32,000 nucleotides of DNA from Staphylothermus marinus F1. Lineage in GTDB: Archaea > Thermoproteota > Thermoprotei_A > Sulfolobales > Desulfurococcaceae. The first letter of the stretch is position 1. Each line of letters begins with the position of its first letter. Position numbers and translations under genes: made by a program. The notes under the pieces are model-generated. The model was not told the origin of the DNA. It saw only the letters and a list, made by a program, of their open reading frames with translations, and did not search any database. The stretch is from contig NC_009033.1 of NCBI RefSeq assembly GCF_000015945.1, positions 1,410,001 through 1,442,000 on the forward strand, read 5' to 3'. Below, piece by piece: positions 5,658 through 32,000 of the stretch.

Positions 5658-5757
<100 letters not shown>

Positions 5758-24670: not shown

Positions 24671-25888
24671 GTGATAGTGATGCATGAAGCTCTTATAGCA
24701 TCAATATTGATAATATTAATGCTTCCCTTAACAATAGCTAGTCTAACAGGTTCAACAACAGTATTAATTAGAGCTAATGGAACCTTCTCTATGAGCTCCG
24801 AAATAATTTATAGAATTAATTCAACTATGAATTCCAAACTTGAAGGATCATTTATAAATGGAGAAATGATCAGCATAAATATTTCTCAATCAACTATGCA
24901 AAAGGAAAATATTAATGTAAGCTTCGAAATGTTCAGGAAAAATACAATATTTTATGGAAATCTAACTGAAAACTATAGAGGAGCTGATAAATCATTTTAT
25001 AATAGAGAAACCTTTTACACGATAAAACTAATCAACAATAACAAGATGAATATTTCCTACTTAACCATTAATGTTACATCAAATAATAAGAAAATAATTC
25101 TTCACTGGAACATCACACTATTATCAATAGCACTGCTAACACATAATGAGAGTATAACAACAAGGTATAAATACTCGAACAACTTATATAAGTTGAAGAT
25201 TACAATTAGAAATGGAATAGTAAATTTAAATAACGAAGCCAAAAAATTATTTACTCAAATATTATTCACTAGATACAATTATACTCTTATATGGAACATT
25301 CTTCCCCGTGTCAACAAGATAAAAACAATAATCAATACTGTGGATAAGAGAATGAATATGCAGTTATACTATTCTATTAATGGCTTAGATCTTCCTACTA
25401 ATAAATCTAAGTATGTTCTACCAATTATAATTCAAATAAGAAACAATACACTCAGCATAATCAATATTCCTATTGGTTTAATCAACTACGTACTGTTTAC
25501 ACGTGCATCATGGAATTCTACATGCATAAATGGATTGATTAGAAGCAATATATATGCTGAAGGTATTGGTTTAAAAACACAGGGTTTTGATAAAATACAC
25601 TCAATAATATATTCAGCAACCCGATCAATAGGATCAATATCAAATACCACCATAGTTGGTTCAAACATATATTTCAACATTAATGGTAATATAACAAATA
25701 AATTCATACTAACTCCAAAAATGAATATTTCAACAATAAATATTGTTTATAACACAAATACTGGAAAAACCACGTCGGCTAGAGAAGGCGAACAAGTAAC
25801 TTGGTTAATTATAATTGGTTCTGTGATAACAATTATGATTATCCTATACGTTCTATACCGATATCGCGTATTTTCTCGACGAGCTTAA
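24671..25888 (+). CDS. Secreted, heavily N-glycosylatable Asn/Ile-rich protein with signal sequence and C-terminal TM anchor
   Basis: N-terminal ALIASILIILMLPLTIASLTG and C-terminal VTWLIIIGSVITIMIILYVLYRYRVFSRRA. More than 15 N-x-S/T sequons. Very AT-rich codon usage. The ATG at 24680 is the probable start. Confidence 0.55.
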   Translation: MIVMHEALIASILIILMLPLTIASLTGSTTVLIRANGTFSMSSEIIYRINSTMNSKLEGSFINGEMISINISQSTMQKENINVSFEMFRKNTIFYGNLTENYRGADKSFYNRETFYTIKLINNNKMNISYLTINVTSNNKKIILHWNITLLSIALLTHNESITTRYKYSNNLYKLKITIRNGIVNLNNEAKKLFTQILFTRYNYTLIWNILPRVNKIKTIINTVDKRMNMQLYYSINGLDLPTNKSKYVLPIIIQIRNNTLSIINIPIGLINYVLFTRASWNSTCINGLIRSNIYAEGIGLKTQGFDKIHSIIYSATRSIGSISNTTIVGSNIYFNINGNITNKFILTPKMNISTINIVYNTNTGKTTSAREGEQVTWLIIIGSVITIMIILYVLYRYRVFSRRA

Positions 25889-26837
25889 GCATTATGTATT
25901 CTTGAATTGCATTGTTTGAGAAAAATGATTTCAACCTAATAATTAATGGTATTTTGATCTTGAACCCTGCTGCCCTAGAATGCCCGCCTCCCCCAAAGGC
26001 TAGTGCTAGATTCCTAATATTTATGTTTCTGCTTCTAAGACTAACTTTTCCATCTTTCGAAACAACAGCTACAATATCAGCGTTTGTCCTACCCATAGTA
26101 TAGGACGCTGTAAAACTGTTTTCAATGCTTTTATTTTGTAGAACTACTGCTATTCTTATATCATTTATTTCTCTGGTTAGAATTGTATCATCAACCATTT
26201 TATAACCATATAGTTCTTTTTCAAATCTCTCAACAACCTTAGCTGTGAATTCTTCATCCCATAAGACTCCTCTACTAATTTTCTCTAATACTTTGAGACG
26301 CCACTCTGGATCATCATGCCTCCTTATGAGGCGGAGATACCATGGCCCCCTCCAATGATCAAATCTCCACAGATCTCCTGCACATACTCCTCTCACAAGT
26401 TCCGATACAAAATCCTCGTCTACATTGTTTCCATATTGTCTAGCATATTTTGCAACTACTCCTACTGCACATGTTGATCTATCTATATATATTTTAACAC
26501 CTAGCTCCTTCAATTTATTAATCCAATCTTCATCCCACACATGGTGATCAAACCATTCTATATCGATGTTTTTGCCGCGAAGAATCCTTATATACTCTAT
26601 GATCTTGTCCATAGTGTTCTTATTCATACCTAAATCCATTAACGCAATATTTTTTACTGCATAATCTGATCCAACAATTTTCTTCAACGTTTTATATAGA
26701 AGGTATGGTTCGGTGAAATAGATTTTTTCCGGTGGTTTATTATGTAAGTATATGTAGAGAGCGGCCGATCCAACACCATCCATATCAGTATGTGTTACTA
26801 TAATGTAATTATCGTTTACACTCATCTTATCAACCAT
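25839..26837 (-). CDS. DHH/DHHA1-family phosphoesterase (RecJ-like / nanoRNase-like)
   Basis: Motif I THTDMDGVGSA, motif II MDLG, motif III FDHH, and DHHA1 motif GGGGHSRAAGF. 332 aa. The 3' end overlaps the convergent gene by 50 nt. Confidence 0.8.
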   Translation of the reverse strand: MVDKMSVNDNYIIVTHTDMDGVGSAALYIYLHNKPPEKIYFTEPYLLYKTLKKIVGSDYAVKNIALMDLGMNKNTMDKIIEYIRILRGKNIDIEWFDHHVWDEDWINKLKELGVKIYIDRSTCAVGVVAKYARQYGNNVDEDFVSELVRGVCAGDLWRFDHWRGPWYLRLIRRHDDPEWRLKVLEKISRGVLWDEEFTAKVVERFEKELYGYKMVDDTILTREINDIRIAVVLQNKSIENSFTASYTMGRTNADIVAVVSKDGKVSLRSRNINIRNLALAFGGGGHSRAAGFKIKIPLIIRLKSFFSNNAIQEYIMLKLVEKIRDIGIERIG

Positions 26838-27014: not shown

Positions 27015-27476
27015 TTGTTTAGAAGAATGAGGAAAAGGAAATACAGTGATATAACGTCAGTAAGTAGTAGGTTTGAAGCAGAGAAGCTGTTACGTGATCT
27101 AAGCAATAAAGAAAAATCTATACTATATATATTGACAAGCAAAATAGATGATAAGAAGAAAGAGCTAATCAATAATTATTATAAATTTACTGGTAATAAG
27201 CCTCAAGTTGTTGAATTGGAAAATTACAAAGGAAAAACACCGGTAATACTAGCAGAAAGACTTGATAAAGTTGCGAAAACAGTAGAGAAAGATAATAAGG
27301 ATCTAATTGTATTTGTTGACATAGATGATCTAGGAGCTAAAGACAATACTCAAAAATACTTAGTTGTACGAACAATTATCGAAGCACTAGATAAACATCC
27401 TCATATAAAGAAAGCGGTATTTTTCACTCAAAGAAAAGATGTTAAAGATTTAATTGATTATTTCAATACAGAGTAA
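27015..27476 (+). CDS. Small soluble hypothetical protein resembling a P-loop-less RecA/KaiC-derived (DUF835-like) domain
   Basis: No Walker A, but a strand-acidic motif DLIVFVDIDDLGAKD followed by YLVVRTIIEALDK...KKAVFFT. This is the same layout as the C-terminal domain of 28366..29718. TTG at 27015; the ATG at 27027 is the more likely start. Confidence 0.5.
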   Translation: MFRRMRKRKYSDITSVSSRFEAEKLLRDLSNKEKSILYILTSKIDDKKKELINNYYKFTGNKPQVVELENYKGKTPVILAERLDKVAKTVEKDNKDLIVFVDIDDLGAKDNTQKYLVVRTIIEALDKHPHIKKAVFFTQRKDVKDLIDYFNTE

Positions 27477-27579
27477 TTTAAAGCAATTACTCTTTCATAT
27501 ATTGATTTAGATAACATGTTTATATATATCGTTAACTAATAACATTAATTTATGATACTAAAAATATTATTTTAATAGG

Positions 27580-28365
27580 GTGATAATTTTGCCTCGTCTA
27601 AAATTTGTAAAAACAGGTATGTCTGATATCGATGAAAAAATATTAGCAAATAAGGGGCTTCCAAGGCCAGGAACAATATATATTTTGGGGCATCCCGGAG
27701 TCGGTAAAACAACCTTTGTTGCTACATACTTAGTCAATAGAGCTAAGGAAGGAGAGAAGGGAGTATATGTATCTCTTATTGAGAACAAAGAATTATTTAT
27801 AGAGCATTTTAGAGAATTCTCATTCTACAATGATTTAGCAAAGTTTATTGAAAATAATACAATATATTTCGCAGGTGCGCCTCCTGTATATGGTTATGAT
27901 TCTAAGAGAATATTAGACCTATTTGAAAACGTAGGGAATTTAATAAATAGTCTAAATGCTAAGAACTTAGTTATAGATAGCATTAATGCTTTAACACTAT
28001 ATCTTAAAATGCAACAAATAAGAACACTCATTACTCGACTATATTATTTAACAATAGATAATGATTTAACAATAATATTAATTGGTGAGTTACCATTATT
28101 CTCTACATCAACTTATTCATGGTCTGAAGAGTTTATAGCAGACATAGTATTATTAATGGATTATGTATGGATAATATCAGGAGTTCCCAGATTAGCTGTG
28201 AGACTTGTACCAGTAAAGTCGCGAATGTTTAATGTAGCTAAAATACCTTACGAAGTCCAAGTAGATTATAATAATGGATTAAAGCTTATACATGAATTAA
28301 TCGAGCCATATGTCCCCTTCGCTAAGGAAGTTAGTCGTGGCGCGGGTTATATGGAGGAGCGTTAA
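27580..28365 (+). CDS. Single-domain KaiC/RadA-like (RecA-superfamily) ATPase
   Basis: FVKTGMSDIDEKIL..GLPRPGTIYILGHPGVGKTTFVATYLVNRAKEGEKGVYVSLIEN (TGIxxLD-like entry, Walker A, catalytic Glu region), Walker B NLVIDSINAL, and C-terminal ..LVPVKSRMF (KMRG-like). GTG start at 27580; the ATG at 27619 would remove the conserved N-terminal strand. Confidence 0.8.
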   Translation: MIILPRLKFVKTGMSDIDEKILANKGLPRPGTIYILGHPGVGKTTFVATYLVNRAKEGEKGVYVSLIENKELFIEHFREFSFYNDLAKFIENNTIYFAGAPPVYGYDSKRILDLFENVGNLINSLNAKNLVIDSINALTLYLKMQQIRTLITRLYYLTIDNDLTIILIGELPLFSTSTYSWSEEFIADIVLLMDYVWIISGVPRLAVRLVPVKSRMFNVAKIPYEVQVDYNNGLKLIHELIEPYVPFAKEVSRGAGYMEER

Positions 28366-29718
28366 TTGGGAGAATCTACTAGTTTGATTAGTATCTCCAT
28401 ATTGTCTCTTGAGAAATCTTGGTTTATAATATTTCTATCACTATATCTACTACTTATGTGTTTATACAACTATAACAAGTATATACATTATGCAAGATTT
28501 TTTCGAGGAATTACGAGATTTCTCAACATACATATTATTGCATATTTAGTATTCACAGGTTTATTGATATACTCTACTATTATAGAGTCCCGTCTGATCT
28601 TGTTCCATATAATAAATATATTCTCAATTCTCATATTATTTTTATTGCTCACGTATAAGATTGCTTCTTTTTGGGCGCTGGGCAATGAGTTCGATATTTT
28701 CGCTGAAATTGTAAATATGTTTAGCTTTAGCAAAGAAAAAGATCTAGAATACAAATTTAATGCCATAGTAAGCACAAATGTTACCACGGTAACTATTACG
28801 AACGTGTTAATTAGCATATATCTATTATTTAATAATTCATATATAGCGTTCAAATTATTCGTGATACTAATATTCTTTATACTCTACATTTCTAAAGCAA
28901 TACTCTTATTGTATTATAAGGGTAAAAATTCTCTATACATAATGCAGTCACATTTAATACTGATTGATGCCTTGTTAATATTCTCTTTACTTATGTATTC
29001 GACAAGCTACTGTACTGATGTTATCAGCATATTAATAATGATAGGATATATTATATTCTTCTACAATATCCACTTCATCGATTTATCTACCCCATTATAT
29101 TTCTCTGTTAAGAAATTATCTTTGAAAAAATCGGGTTCAATCATAGTATTAGCTAGAAGTAAAAAACCTAAATCTGAAAAGATCATGGAGATCATAAGAG
29201 AAGTAGTGAACACTATGAATGACGGCAAGAAAGTTGTAATGTTTATAAGTAGGCCTCATTCTATGACTTGGAGAAAATTTTATTCAAAAATAATAGCTAA
29301 TATGGATATGCTGAGAAAACTAGGAATTGCTGAGATACATAGGGTTAGTATTAGTCACGGATTAGAATCACTATATCGAATGGAAGCAAGCACGAAGTGT
29401 GTATCCTCTATCTGTTTTAAGGAATATAAATTGTTTGCAGACAGTTCTGTCCTTATAAGAGGTGTTAGAGAATTGTTTTCACACGGTTTTTCACCTATTA
29501 TATTAATTGAGGATTTATTGGATTTCATGATGAGTCTTGGTGGATGGAAAGAAGTTTATAAATTAGTAAACTTCTTGATTAACCTAAACACTAGTAATAC
29601 TCAAAAAATAAGTATTATAATGGTTATTAACACTAGTGTTCCAGAACCTTATAGGGCAGATTTAAAATTGTTGTTTTCATCCCTAATGCCTAGATCGCAG
29701 ATACTGGTTTCATTATAA
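28366..29718 (+). CDS. Polytopic (~7 TM) membrane protein with a C-terminal cytoplasmic P-loop-less RecA-like (DUF835-like) domain
   Basis: About 7 hydrophobic helices in residues 18-237. Then GSIIVLARSKKP...GKKVVMFISRPHS...FSPIILIEDLLDFMMSLGGWKEVYKLVNFLINL...ISIIMVINTSVPEP, i.e. beta-strand/Walker-B-like IEDL with no GKT. The TTG start directly abuts the KaiC-like TAA stop, and GGAGGAG lies 6 nt upstream (28353-28359). Confidence 0.65.
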   Translation: MGESTSLISISILSLEKSWFIIFLSLYLLLMCLYNYNKYIHYARFFRGITRFLNIHIIAYLVFTGLLIYSTIIESRLILFHIINIFSILILFLLLTYKIASFWALGNEFDIFAEIVNMFSFSKEKDLEYKFNAIVSTNVTTVTITNVLISIYLLFNNSYIAFKLFVILIFFILYISKAILLLYYKGKNSLYIMQSHLILIDALLIFSLLMYSTSYCTDVISILIMIGYIIFFYNIHFIDLSTPLYFSVKKLSLKKSGSIIVLARSKKPKSEKIMEIIREVVNTMNDGKKVVMFISRPHSMTWRKFYSKIIANMDMLRKLGIAEIHRVSISHGLESLYRMEASTKCVSSICFKEYKLFADSSVLIRGVRELFSHGFSPIILIEDLLDFMMSLGGWKEVYKLVNFLINLNTSNTQKISIIMVINTSVPEPYRADLKLLFSSLMPRSQILVSL

Positions 29719-29745
29719 TTGTGATTATAAGGAATGACTAAGCTT

Positions 29746-29765
29746 ATATCTAGTATTCTAGATAT
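29746..29765. promoter_or_regulatory. Perfect 8-bp-arm palindrome ATATCTAG-tatt-CTAGATAT between the membrane protein gene and the next ORF
   Basis: Read directly: arms at 29746-29753 and 29758-29765. Lies 28 nt after the stop at 29718 and 27 nt before the TTG at 29792. Could be an operator or a transcript-end hairpin. Confidence 0.25.
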
Positions 29766-29791
29766 CTATTTATCAAGAGCCATTAATAGAC

Positions 29792-30604
29792 TTGATTTAT
29801 TTAAGGTATTATTCTTTTAAACTCCAGTATGTGAGGAGCAGAGATTTGGGGGAGGAAGAGAAAGAGGTATATGAGGTTATAGCGTCTCTTCCAATAGATA
29901 TGAATAGAATGAATATTTTGAATGATATTACATTTGAAGCTCAACTACTTATGCGTAGCAAGTTTTTAAAGAAGATAACACTAGGATACAAAGATTTGCT
30001 TAAGATACATGAACTTGGTAAAGATAAAGAAGTATTATTGACTACAGAGTTTAACAATAAAAGATATATCATATATATTGATCACGGAGTAATAGTCTCT
30101 TCTGCCGAAACAGATCCTGAGAAGGATACGAGAATAGTTGGTTTAAGACCTTTAGCAACACTTATACTCGCATCTAAAATTAAACCCATAACCTTCAAAT
30201 TATTCGAGATACAACCATATGAGGAAGAGAAAACCCAGGAAGCACCTAAGACTGTATACAGGGAATTCATTACTAAGAAAAAAATAGTGCCTCCAACAAT
30301 CCCTGTTAGCAAGAAAAAGGAAACTAGAATAATGGATTTCTCTAAGATGCTCAAGGAATTAATCGATAAAACTAAGCAAGATGTTGAAGATATTGCTCCA
30401 CTATATGGTTGTAAACTCGTAGATGTAAAACTAGCGATTAGTCGTGGAACTATATATATTAGAGTCTATGTTAAAAAGAAGAGCTTCCTGGGTAAATGCT
30501 CTATTGAAAAATTAATGGAAAATATTAAGAATGATCTAGAAGTAATAACTTCGATGATAGATCTAAATCTACCTTATAAAGTAGAAGTGATTCAAATAAA
30601 ATAA
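29792..30604 (+). CDS. Orphan two-domain hypothetical protein with a Lys/Pro-rich linker
   Basis: 270-aa ORF. Start ambiguous (TTG 29792, GTG 29831, ATG 29900). The N-domain (..KRYIIYIDHGVIVSSAETDPEKDTRIVGLRPLATLILASK) is loosely Roadblock/LC7-like. The linker is EEEKTQEAPKTV..KKKIVPPTIPVSKKKE. The C-domain is about 90 aa alpha/beta. No catalytic motif recognised. Confidence 0.5.
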   Translation: MIYLRYYSFKLQYVRSRDLGEEEKEVYEVIASLPIDMNRMNILNDITFEAQLLMRSKFLKKITLGYKDLLKIHELGKDKEVLLTTEFNNKRYIIYIDHGVIVSSAETDPEKDTRIVGLRPLATLILASKIKPITFKLFEIQPYEEEKTQEAPKTVYREFITKKKIVPPTIPVSKKKETRIMDFSKMLKELIDKTKQDVEDIAPLYGCKLVDVKLAISRGTIYIRVYVKKKSFLGKCSIEKLMENIKNDLEVITSMIDLNLPYKVEVIQIK

Positions 30605-30670
30605 AGAACTATAGATTATAAAAATTTTCCCCCAAGAATATTTTAATCATCGATTAGGACCTTTATATAT

Positions 30671-30699
30671 TATACAAGATTAATAATATATCTTGTATA
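30671..30699. promoter_or_regulatory. Perfect 10-bp inverted repeat TATACAAGAT-(9 nt)-ATCTTGTATA embedded in the TATA-rich promoter region of the ACT-V4R gene
   Basis: Read directly: arms at 30671-30680 and 30690-30699, 19-47 nt upstream of the GTG at 30718. Confidence 0.35.
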
Positions 30700-30717
30700 T
30701 ATAGTGTCTAATCCTAG

Positions 30718-31626
30718 GTGATAATATTGAGTTTTTGGAAAATAGTATTAAAGAGAAAAGGCCCTTTAGTTAAAAAAAGAGAAAAGGATATACCTGATCT
30801 CTACTTGGATACTGTCTATTTCTCCGAGAATAAACCATTATCACTATTATTATTAAAGGCTATAAATAAGCCGGGAATAATATTCAAGGTCACCGAGATA
30901 ATAGCTGGTAAAGGCAAAAATATCATTAAGCTTAACGTGCCAGATATAGCATTTGGCGATTATGGTTTTGTATTGATCCTCATTGATAATTGTGATGAGT
31001 CTTGTGGTGAAGATTTGAAAAAGGAAATAGTGAATAGATTGGGGAATGATATTATAAAGATAGATGTGTTCACTTCTACTAATAGCTATGTTTTTCTAAA
31101 ATACAATAGGTTATTACTGCTTGACGATGAATCAATTGTTATGACGAAAAGAATGATTGAAAGAGCTATTTATTATGTGTATAAGAAGGGAATGTTTAAT
31201 GCCACTGCTTTCTTAACAGATTTTGGTAGGGGTATAGGAGAGTCAATCTATGATATATTTATATCTGAGCTAATGAAGGATGTTGAGAGAAAATATGAAG
31301 AAAGACTGAGAGATTCTCTCAAAATGTTTACTTATATATATAAAGCTCTAGGATTAGGAGATATGTTGATAGAAGGTTTAGAAGAGCTTGGAAACAGTTA
31401 TAGGATTATTATTAGAAATAATTATGAATGCACTGCACTTGCAAAATATGGTTCGAAACATGGTTTTGTCGGAAAAGTTGGAAATATGACTAAAGGCGTT
31501 ATAGAGGGGTTCTTCAGGAAATTGTTTAATAGAGAAGTTAGTGTAAAAGAAATTGAATGCGTTCTTGAAGGAAGACAAGCAGATGTATTTACAGTCGATC
31601 TTAGAGAATATGCTTTTGAGTTGTAG
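30718..31626 (+). CDS. ACT-like domain + V4R (4-vinyl reductase-type) small-molecule-binding domain protein
   Basis: N-terminal LSLLLLKAINKPGIIFKVTEIIAGKGKNIIKLNV...FVLILID (ACT-like beta-alpha-beta-beta). C-terminal YRIIIRNNYECTALAKYGSKHGFVGKVGNMTKGVIEGFFRKLFNREVSVKEIECVLEGRQADVFTV matches the V4R signature (..ECxxxx....GxxxGxxxxxxxxxVxxxExxCxxxGxxxCxFxV-like). No ATG near the 5' end: GTG at 30718, or TTG at 30727 after TAGGTGAT. Confidence 0.7.
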   Translation: MIILSFWKIVLKRKGPLVKKREKDIPDLYLDTVYFSENKPLSLLLLKAINKPGIIFKVTEIIAGKGKNIIKLNVPDIAFGDYGFVLILIDNCDESCGEDLKKEIVNRLGNDIIKIDVFTSTNSYVFLKYNRLLLLDDESIVMTKRMIERAIYYVYKKGMFNATAFLTDFGRGIGESIYDIFISELMKDVERKYEERLRDSLKMFTYIYKALGLGDMLIEGLEELGNSYRIIIRNNYECTALAKYGSKHGFVGKVGNMTKGVIEGFFRKLFNREVSVKEIECVLEGRQADVFTVDLREYAFEL

Positions 31627-31660: not shown

Positions 31661-32000
31661 CTACTTTTCAAGCTCTCTTGTTCTCTCAAATAATTCTTTA
31701 GTTGCTTCACCCATTTCCTTAGTTCCGCCCACTAATTCCTCTGTGGAGGCAACTTCTTCTGGAGCAACCATTGTTGGAACACCTGCTTCACGACCAGCTT
31801 CTTCAAGCTCTCTAACAGCTCTCTTATATACTGAAACAGGATCATAGTAGTAGTTAAATATTATTCTTGAAACATCCCATACATTAAATATGTTCTTATA
31901 GATCATCCAGTTTAATACAGTTGCTTTACGATATATTTCATCAATAATGTCTTCAAGCTCTAATCCACGCTTTGCAGCAATATCCCTTAAATGCAGGCTT
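31661..32000 (-). CDS. Hypothetical protein, 5'-partial (reading frame continues beyond the window end)
   Basis: ORF track gives 31661..31906. Translating 31907-31999 by hand in the same frame shows no stop (SLHLRDIAAKRGLELEDIIDEIYRKATVLNW-MIYKN..), so the gene probably starts outside the window. No motif recognised. Confidence 0.5.
   Translation of the reverse strand, partial: SLHLRDIAAKRGLELEDIIDEIYRKATVLNWMIYKNIFNVWDVSRIIFNYYYDPVSVYKRAVRELEEAGREAGVPTMVAPEEVASTEELVGGTKEMGEATKELFERTRELEK

Follow-up and report, generated by a model that had tools for sequence, protein, structure and literature searches.

Five genes in a 32,000-nucleotide stretch of the Staphylothermus marinus F1 genome (the window) may together form a composite sensory and regulatory module that controls the motor of an Aap-like type IV pilus, a reading that we hold tentatively and at somewhat short of an even chance. 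The genes, here called g1 to g5, all lie on the + strand, and the five open reading frames (ORFs) were found at the coordinates given in an initial annotation of the same DNA. They are real genes, since each has orthologues in other genomes that are conserved at the amino-acid level. Start positions were set from orthologous gene calls and are in places shorter than the raw ORFs. The window has a G+C content of ∼33%, and its proteins are 72–90% identical to those of Staphylothermus hellenicus and 95–98% identical to those of a related assembly. The genes, and the one that faces them, are as follows.

27015/27027–27476, + strand: g1, with the ATG at 27027 as its likely start
27580/27589–28365, + strand: g2, with the TTG at 27589 as its likely start
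28366–29718, + strand: g3, its start codon directly abutting the g2 stop
29846–30604, + strand: g4, inside ORF 29792–30604
30727–31626, + strand: g5, inside ORF 30718–31626
31661–32000, − strand: 3′ end of a T2SSE-type (PilB/ArlI-like) pilus assembly ATPase gene, convergent with g5

The initial annotation saw a signalling device in the block. This is supported in part, but the pilus locus that begins at the end of the block (31661–32000, −) had been overlooked. The translated T2SSE fragment is 95% identical to the C-terminus of S. hellenicus T2SSE. In S. hellenicus and other long contigs, T2SSE has a divergent T2SSF platform gene next to it and then several pilin-like genes, and the ORFs downstream of T2SSF have class III signal-peptide-like, K-G-hydrophobic N-termini. 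Both PF00437 and PF00482 are present in L001, L004, L006, L007 and L027–L031 (L numbers denote the loci compared), and the full pilus locus is present in L001, L004, L006, L007, L015 and L016. Its gene content identifies the neighbouring locus as an archaeal type IV pilus locus, the remainder of which lies beyond the window. Staphylothermus ATPases fall into clade 4, and the Desulfurococcales systems form subclade 4A with untraceable extra components (PMC4858521); from the text and tree of that study, we infer that the neighbouring locus belongs to subclade 4A (Aap-like, adhesion-pilus type). The same study describes KaiC-family ATPases as recurrent neighbours and predicted regulators of archaeal type IV pilus loci (PMC4858521). 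We consider the pilus locus to be the most likely output of the block.

The gene order is conserved well outside Staphylothermus. A g1-like gene, KaiC, a g3-like gene, g4, g5, T2SSE (−), T2SSF (+) and pilin-like genes follow one another in at least seven Desulfurococcales lineages (Staphylothermus, L004, L005, the L006 group, L007, L012 and L029/L030), so that the co-occurrence in other genomes by which the initial annotation proposed to be judged is indeed found. Within this conserved order, identities drop to 36% for g2, 20–28% for g1 and g3, 33% for g4 and 29% for g5; g1 and g3 are the fastest-evolving genes and change in parallel, and g4 is the slowest-evolving and most conserved gene of the block. 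All KaiC orthologues have a P-loop, and none of the flanking partners does. Wherever downstream sequence exists, the full block stands tail to tail with the pilus ATPase gene, and the T2SSE gene adjoins g4 or g4–g5 in 17 distinct loci. These include three lineages that are further removed (L027, L028 and L031), which have the order DHH (−)/g4/T2SSE (−)/T2SSF without KaiC, g3 and g5 and in which g4 is 27–33% identical. At least three further loci (L013, L017 and L026) have g5 as the sole partner of g4; in L013, g3 is absent upstream and pilus genes are absent downstream of the pair. The five-gene block of the initial annotation is thus a recurring order but not an indivisible one, as g4 occurs alone or with g5 only and just g2 and g3 abut (28365/28366).

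Judged from its profile matches and motifs, the g2 product is an intact single-domain KaiC-family (RecA-superfamily) ATPase with predicted activity, as the initial annotation had it. It matches the Pfam KaiC model PF06745 with 105.7 bits (cut-off, 26.6; E=3.2e-30), Walker A and Walker B are both present, and Walker A is kept in all seven orthologues checked.

27688–27711, + strand: g2 Walker A, GHPGVGKT
27772–27786, + strand: g2 catalytic Glu, in SLIEN
27964–27981, + strand: g2 Walker B, NLVIDS

The closest matches of g2 in the PDB are KaiC chains, aligned over their CI part (chain residues 8–225 and 31–209; E down to 5.8e-18), and the single-domain protein PH0186; FlaH/ArlH is matched with E=2.6e-6. 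Against the NCBIfam ArlH model NF052589, g2 scores 27.3 bits with a cut-off of 215 and hence is not an ArlH equivalog. A circadian clock KaiC was considered and rejected, as g2 has a single domain of 258–261 aa and is accompanied by neither KaiB nor KaiA; it scores 29 bits against NCBIfam circ_KaiC (cut-off, 546).

Hydropathy analysis of g3 indicates about seven transmembrane segments. In the AlphaFold (AF2) model, eight long helices (residues 2–241) precede an alpha/beta domain (residues 259–448), and the membrane protein with a P-loop-less cytoplasmic domain that had been proposed is borne out. With moderate confidence, the model suggests that this cytoplasmic domain has a RecA/KaiC-like fold that lacks the P-loop. 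The top match in a Foldseek search of the PDB is KaiC CI (6x61_C; E=7e-4, probability 1.0, target-normalised TM-score 0.46), and further matches are Rho, F1-beta, DnaB-type helicase, SF2 RecA-like domains and the P-loop-less Rad51 paralogues Psy3-Csm2. The predicted local distance difference test score (pLDDT) is 58–77 in the C-terminal domain and below 50 in the transmembrane part. A profile of the C-terminal domain finds FlaH as its top PDB match, at a non-significant E=0.12. None of seven g3-position proteins contains the P-loop motif [AG]x4GK[ST], and the sole feature conserved among them is an acidic strand, xIEDLxD.

29140–29715, + strand: g3 cytoplasmic domain (residues ∼259–450)
29497–29523, + strand: g3 acidic strand, IILIEDLLD

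Word-indexed homologue searches with g3 returned three to six proteins. A resemblance of g3 to DUF835 had been suggested, and we found none: Pfam DUF835 (PF05763) matches neither the window protein nor eight family members (E≤1), nor the orthologues P0001–P0003 and the family consensus (E≤10). The name DUF835 is attached to the g3 family solely as the UniRef label of the S. hellenicus orthologue. More generally, g1, g3 and g4 have no DUF835, KaiC or Roadblock/LC7 match in Pfam or NCBIfam, whether searched as proteins, as family members or as consensuses, and the idea of a Roadblock/LC7 relationship is left unsupported.

The model of g4, built on an alignment of the 15 clusters (at 50% identity) that an exhaustive phmmer search yielded in all, is confident (mean pLDDT, 85); both domains are mostly above 90, with the C-terminal domain at 87–88 in two stretches. 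The family is uniform in length and layout. Two domains and a linker rich in Lys, Pro and Glu had been described correctly.

29846–30226, + strand: g4 N-terminal domain (residues 1–127)
30227–30331, + strand: g4 disordered Lys/Pro/Glu-rich linker (residues 128–162)
30332–30601, + strand: g4 C-terminal domain, alpha-beta-beta-alpha-beta, RimP-N-like

Foldseek matches the C-terminal domain only, and weakly, to the RimP N-domain, the S3 N-domain, RbfA and the CDF C-terminal domain; weak RimP_N matches of g4 in Pfam agree with this. A PDB sequence-profile search with g4 gave nothing significant. The Pfam evidence on the family concerns PATAN and DUF2226. Member P0021 scores 24.9 bits against PATAN/PatA_N/DUF4388 (PF14332; cut-off, 25; E=2.2e-5), DUF4388 is the top Pfam match of the family consensus (E=6e-4), and ‘PatA_N (faint)’ occurs as a precomputed label. 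Against the archaeal DUF2226 (PF09987), member P0028 scores 22.6 bits (cut-off, 22) and P0023 has E=0.0024; DUF2226 matches occur in 3 of the 15 family members, the window g4 not being among them. These borderline matches point to g4 as a putative distant relative of the PATAN/DUF2226 group, and the description of g4 as a pure orphan would have to be given up.

The g5 product reads as an ACT plus V4R protein with two predicted ligand-binding domains, in agreement with the initial annotation. V4R (PF02830) scores 31.5 bits (cut-off, 31); ACT_AHAS_ss scores 23 bits (cut-off, 27) in the window protein, and the ACT domain (PF01842/PF22629) is clearer in orthologues (E≤1e-5). The V4R region also matches the NCBIfam MsvR model (E=5.6e-9; 36 bits with a cut-off of 220). 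Ten homologues share four invariant or nearly invariant cysteines, C278 being ‘nearly invariant’ solely since a truncated L017 sequence ends short of that region. Their conservation suggests a metal or Fe-S centre or a thiol redox switch.

30991–31005, + strand: g5 C89 and C93, a CxxxC motif at the end of ACT
31429–31431, + strand: g5 C235, in V4R
31558–31560, + strand: g5 C278, in V4R

The first gene of the block is the least tractable. As annotated, g1 encodes a soluble protein of ∼150 aa without the [AG]x4GK[ST] motif and with a Walker-B-like (hhhhDxDD) strand, LIVFVDIDD (27303–27329, + strand); it has four orthologues and evolves fast. Its best match, V-ATPase subunit F, is non-significant. 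BLASTP and hhalign show no similarity of g1 to the g3 cytoplasmic domain or to KaiC, and the proposal that g3 repeats the layout of g1 finds no support in these comparisons; of the two RecA/KaiC-like partners envisaged for the ATPase, g3 keeps this status through its Foldseek match to KaiC CI, whereas g1 has no profile link. In other lineages, the g1 position is filled by multi-spanning membrane proteins of 438–485 aa, likewise without a P-loop. Around the acidic strand, the proteins at positions 1 and 3 of L029 share local similarity (E=7e-5). Pairwise comparison of window-type g1 with the membrane-type position-1 proteins of L006 and L007 gave no similarity. A MAFFT alignment of soluble g1 with the C-termini of the membrane position-1 proteins was rejected, since pairwise tests show no similarity. 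We treat the soluble and membrane proteins as putative positional equivalents only.

In the simplest history of the block, g4 is ancestral and first stood with DHH on one side and the pilus ATPase gene on the other; sensors and the KaiC module were then added around it. The distribution of the genes indicates that g4 predates the rest; g1-g2-g3 look like a later insertion upstream of g4, and g5 like an insertion downstream, so that the module would have grown by accretion. Accretion of sensors around g4 is suggested by an additional V4R gene inserted before g4 in L029 and by the recurring g4–g5 pair (L013, L017 and L026).

If the block does control the pilus motor, g2, presumably a hexamer, would be tethered to the membrane through the pseudo-ATPase domain that g3 contributes as a pseudo-subunit or a cap; the membrane protein that most lineages have at the g1 position would be a second such tether. 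The polytopic parts of g3 and of the position-1 proteins would provide the membrane or envelope input, and g5 would respond to redox state or to a small ligand. Both the state of g5 and the nucleotide state in which g2 finds itself would be relayed to g4, which, by analogy with bacterial PATAN, could dock on the pilus ATPase or platform and tune pilus assembly. The full version of this mechanism, in which a mixed ring of the KaiC-type ATPase and one or two polytopic pseudo-KaiC proteins integrates envelope and g5 ligand/redox signals and acts on the pilus motor via a PATAN relative, we regard as doubtful. Control of the pilus motor as such is supported by the precedents of ArlH-ArlI, CirA and PATAN-PilB1/PilC.

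Several observations weigh against pilus control. The pilus ATPase gene is convergent to the block and not co-transcribed with it. In four loci, g4 has no pilus locus nearby: the g4–g5 pair of L013 has been described above, a distant g4 with DHH stands away from pilus genes in L022 (8733–10705) and L023 (6047–7873), and in L024 (7252–8729) g4 is divergent from a CdvB1/B2-like ESCRT-III gene. Adjacency alone is weak, non-independent evidence, because all loci belong to a single order and synteny extends to the wider region: AMP phosphorylase, GGR, DHH, g4, T2SSE and T2SSF keep their order, and T2SSE identity stays at 71–75%. The window g4 itself has no DUF4388 or DUF2226 match in Pfam, the family matches are borderline, and Foldseek matched no solved structure in the PDB to the g4 N-terminal domain. 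No significant Pfam, NCBIfam or PDB profile match, and thereby no fold link, was obtained for g1, and the g3 model is of moderate confidence.

Some of these points would fit a general KaiC-centred hub whose output lies elsewhere, for example in transcription, with the pilus adjacency as inherited synteny. The GGR, DHH, g4 and T2SSE region is syntenic across the order, T2SSE is convergent in orientation, and four loci have g4 at a distance from pilus genes; the V4R part of g5 is similar to that of the transcription factor MsvR, and KaiC-like ATPases with inactivated homologues were reportedly predicted to be general hubs by Makarova and co-authors in 2017, in a paper cited in PMC5847659. On the other hand, neither a DNA-binding nor any other output domain was found in the five proteins with Pfam and NCBIfam, sensor genes gather around g4, which stays beside T2SSE even where g4 identity is down to 27–33%, and precedents for pilus control exist for both PATAN and KaiC. 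We judge such a hub to be a real but rather doubtful alternative.

It is also conceivable that the block consists of two or three independent neighbouring units, namely g1-g2-g3, g4 (possibly with DHH) and g5 as a sensor of ligand or redox state acting on its own. Apart from g2 and g3, no two genes abut, and the g1/g2, g3/g4 and g4/g5 spacers are 100–130 nt long, A/T-rich and each provided with a TATA-like box at leaderless distance. Moreover, g4 occurs without the others, and DHH stays by g4 where T2SSE is gone (L022 and L023), the two genes being co-directional and 79 nt apart in L023. Yet the g1–g5 order is uninterrupted while identities fall to 20–36%, the g4–g5 pair recurs in otherwise different contigs, and the insertions lie on both sides of one gene, all of which makes separate units unlikely.

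A DNA-repair or recombination module, with g2 as an aRadC-type RecA paralogue accompanied by P-loop-less paralogues beside a DHH/RecJ-like nuclease, could draw on the weakly RecJ/NrnA-like DHH protein, on the Nre_N/Nre_C genes that separate DHH from the block in the L006 group and L029, and on Psy3-Csm2 among the g3 Foldseek matches, but is very improbable because the partners are polytopic, membrane-anchored proteins; furthermore, g2 matches KaiC (105.7 bits) far better than the RadA/RadB models (E=5.5e-4 to 0.01), Nre is absent from the window and from Staphylothermus-type loci, and ACT-V4R and PATAN-like are signalling domains.

The DHH gene persists as the neighbour on the upstream side, whether of g4 or of the inserted block, and its product, weakly similar to archaeal RecJ and NrnA, is possibly linked to the block in function. 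In some lineages, a putative DNA-repair gene of the Nre family (Nre_N/Nre_C), which the window lacks, lies between DHH and the KaiC block.

25839–26837, − strand: DHH/DHHA1 phosphoesterase gene, divergent from the block
L006, 3–449: Nre gene
L012, 4318–5556: Nre gene
L015, 4904–6142: Nre gene
L029, 1598–2833: Nre gene

In several lineages, the T2SSE gene contains one or two inteins (Intein_splicing, LAGLIDADG), with products of 1039–1600 aa; S. hellenicus, L006, L015 and L016 have T2SSE without an intein. The window gene probably carries one beyond position 32000, because a 96%-identical relative has one.

L003, 5687–8896: intein-bearing T2SSE
L004, 14108–17314: intein-bearing T2SSE
L005, 5433–8552: intein-bearing T2SSE
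L007, 10802–15334: intein-bearing T2SSE
L009, 2025–6434: intein-bearing T2SSE
L012, 11396–16195: intein-bearing T2SSE

Short palindromes occur in every spacer of the block, and the best one precedes g5. It is a candidate operator, an assignment that is uncertain, and it shows no clear conservation in S. hellenicus. The palindromes of the window may be due to chance in A/T-rich DNA or may be operators or terminators. A sigma-70 promoter scan was disregarded, as it is inapplicable to archaea.

30671–30699: perfect 10-bp palindrome TATACAAGAT-N9-ATCTTGTATA, directly upstream of the TATA-like box and the g5 start
27470–27493: smaller palindrome at the g1 stop
29746–29765: smaller palindrome in the g3/g4 spacer

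The window lacks a GC-rich insertion of ∼300 nt that separates the g3 and g4 orthologues of S. hellenicus (L001, 11385–11700). This insertion has a clearly more stable fold than shuffled sequence (− strand: z=−3.9, minimum free energy −128 kcal/mol; + strand: z=−2.8), has no Rfam match and includes a 76-aa ORF called on the − strand. Possible identities are a mobile element and a structured RNA that has escaped annotation. The sole Rfam match in the window itself is a tRNA at 5661–5757 (− strand), which at 97 nt compared with a 71-position model suggests an intron or a long variable arm. Further upstream of the block, the gene at 24671–25888 (+ strand) encodes an Asn-rich protein of 405 aa that has a hydrophobic segment at its N-terminus, a membrane anchor at its C-terminus and no family match. 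At the corresponding place, L004 and L007 have genes of 400 and 404 aa; the likeness is one of size and position.

What has already been published are hubs of KaiC with inactivated KaiC and the occurrence of KaiC near type IV pilus loci; what would be new is the particular architecture, and in the searchable literature we found no description of the five-gene arrangement, the g4 family or DUF2226. The general idea being published, the clade narrow and without genetic tools, and several links borderline, the significance of the locus has its limits. Nevertheless, the regulation of archaeal surface pili and the roles of many KaiC-like ATPases are both largely open questions, and to our knowledge only ArlH and CirA among the archaeal KaiC-like ATPases have any experimental footing. 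The locus offers a compact, phylogenetically traceable case with three nested states (g4; g4 and g5; the full block) and makes specific, testable predictions, namely a membrane-bound hetero-complex of ATPase and pseudo-ATPase, a sensor based on cysteines and an adaptor of PATAN type that sits on the motor of the pilus. For DUF2226, an undescribed archaeal family, and its relatives, the locus provides an initial clue to what they do. If the full version of the mechanism, with its mixed ring and PATAN relative, is true, PATAN-type motor adaptors either predate the split between bacteria and archaea or were exchanged between the domains, and no pilus other than the archaellum would have had a KaiC-based input pathway defined for it before this one.

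Makarova, Galperin and Koonin, writing in mBio in 2017, are said to have described archaeal KaiC-like ATPase hubs with inactivated homologues (iKaiC: DUF835 and MEDS). With such hubs, the block shares an active single-domain KaiC ATPase, P-loop-less, RecA/KaiC-like, membrane-anchored partners, ligand-binding domains and a predicted role in signalling. It differs in that its partners match neither DUF835 nor any Pfam model, that it is flanked by PATAN-like and ACT-V4R proteins at a pilus locus and that it is confined to a subset of Desulfurococcales.

The ArlH (FlaH) component of the ArlH-ArlI-ArlJ motor is likewise a single-domain KaiC-like protein that works with a T2SSE-type ATPase and a T2SSF-type platform, and FlaH is both a significant PDB match of g2 and the non-significant top match of the g3 C-terminal domain. 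In contrast to ArlH, g2 falls far short of the ArlH model (27 bits compared with 215), its gene is convergent to the pilus operon rather than inside it, the locus is of the adhesion-pilus type (subclade 4A) and not an archaellum locus, and ArlH has no membrane-anchored pseudo-ATPase partners. A gene of arCOG01806 (‘ACT domain containing protein’) is convergent to FlaJ of the archaellum locus in Aeropyrum pernix and A. camini (PMC4858521, supplementary file 5), which may parallel the position of g5 at the pilus-type locus; the likeness is positional.

The KaiC-like protein CirA of Haloferax volcanii, encoded beside and opposite the arl genes, represses these genes (PMC10983859). CirA acts on archaellum transcript levels in a euryarchaeon and lacks partners of the g1, g3, g4 and g5 types, and its likeness to g2 is one of family. 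Psy3-Csm2 and Rad55-Rad57 are RecA-fold proteins without functional P-loops that partner an active RecA-family ATPase, as proposed here for g3, but they are soluble DNA-repair factors, whereas the partners in the block are polytopic and the ATPase is of the KaiC branch. The V4R sensor MsvR is matched by the V4R region of g5, whose conserved cysteines suggest redox or metal sensing; unlike MsvR, g5 has no DNA-binding domain, carries an N-terminal ACT domain with a CxxxC motif and stays well below the cut-off of the MsvR model.

The closest parallel for a pilus output comes from bacteria, where the PATAN domain of the Synechocystis regulators PixG, PixE and LsiR binds PilB1 and PilC (bioRxiv 10.1101/2021.06.11.447907). 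These regulators differ from g4 in several respects: the PATAN match of the g4 family is borderline (24.9 bits compared with a cut-off of 25) and is missing for the window g4, and g4 has no receiver domain, has an additional RimP-N-like C-terminal domain and belongs to an archaeal host. What they would have in common is a small output domain acting on the pilus extension ATPase and platform, the domain in question being the best Pfam match of the g4 family.

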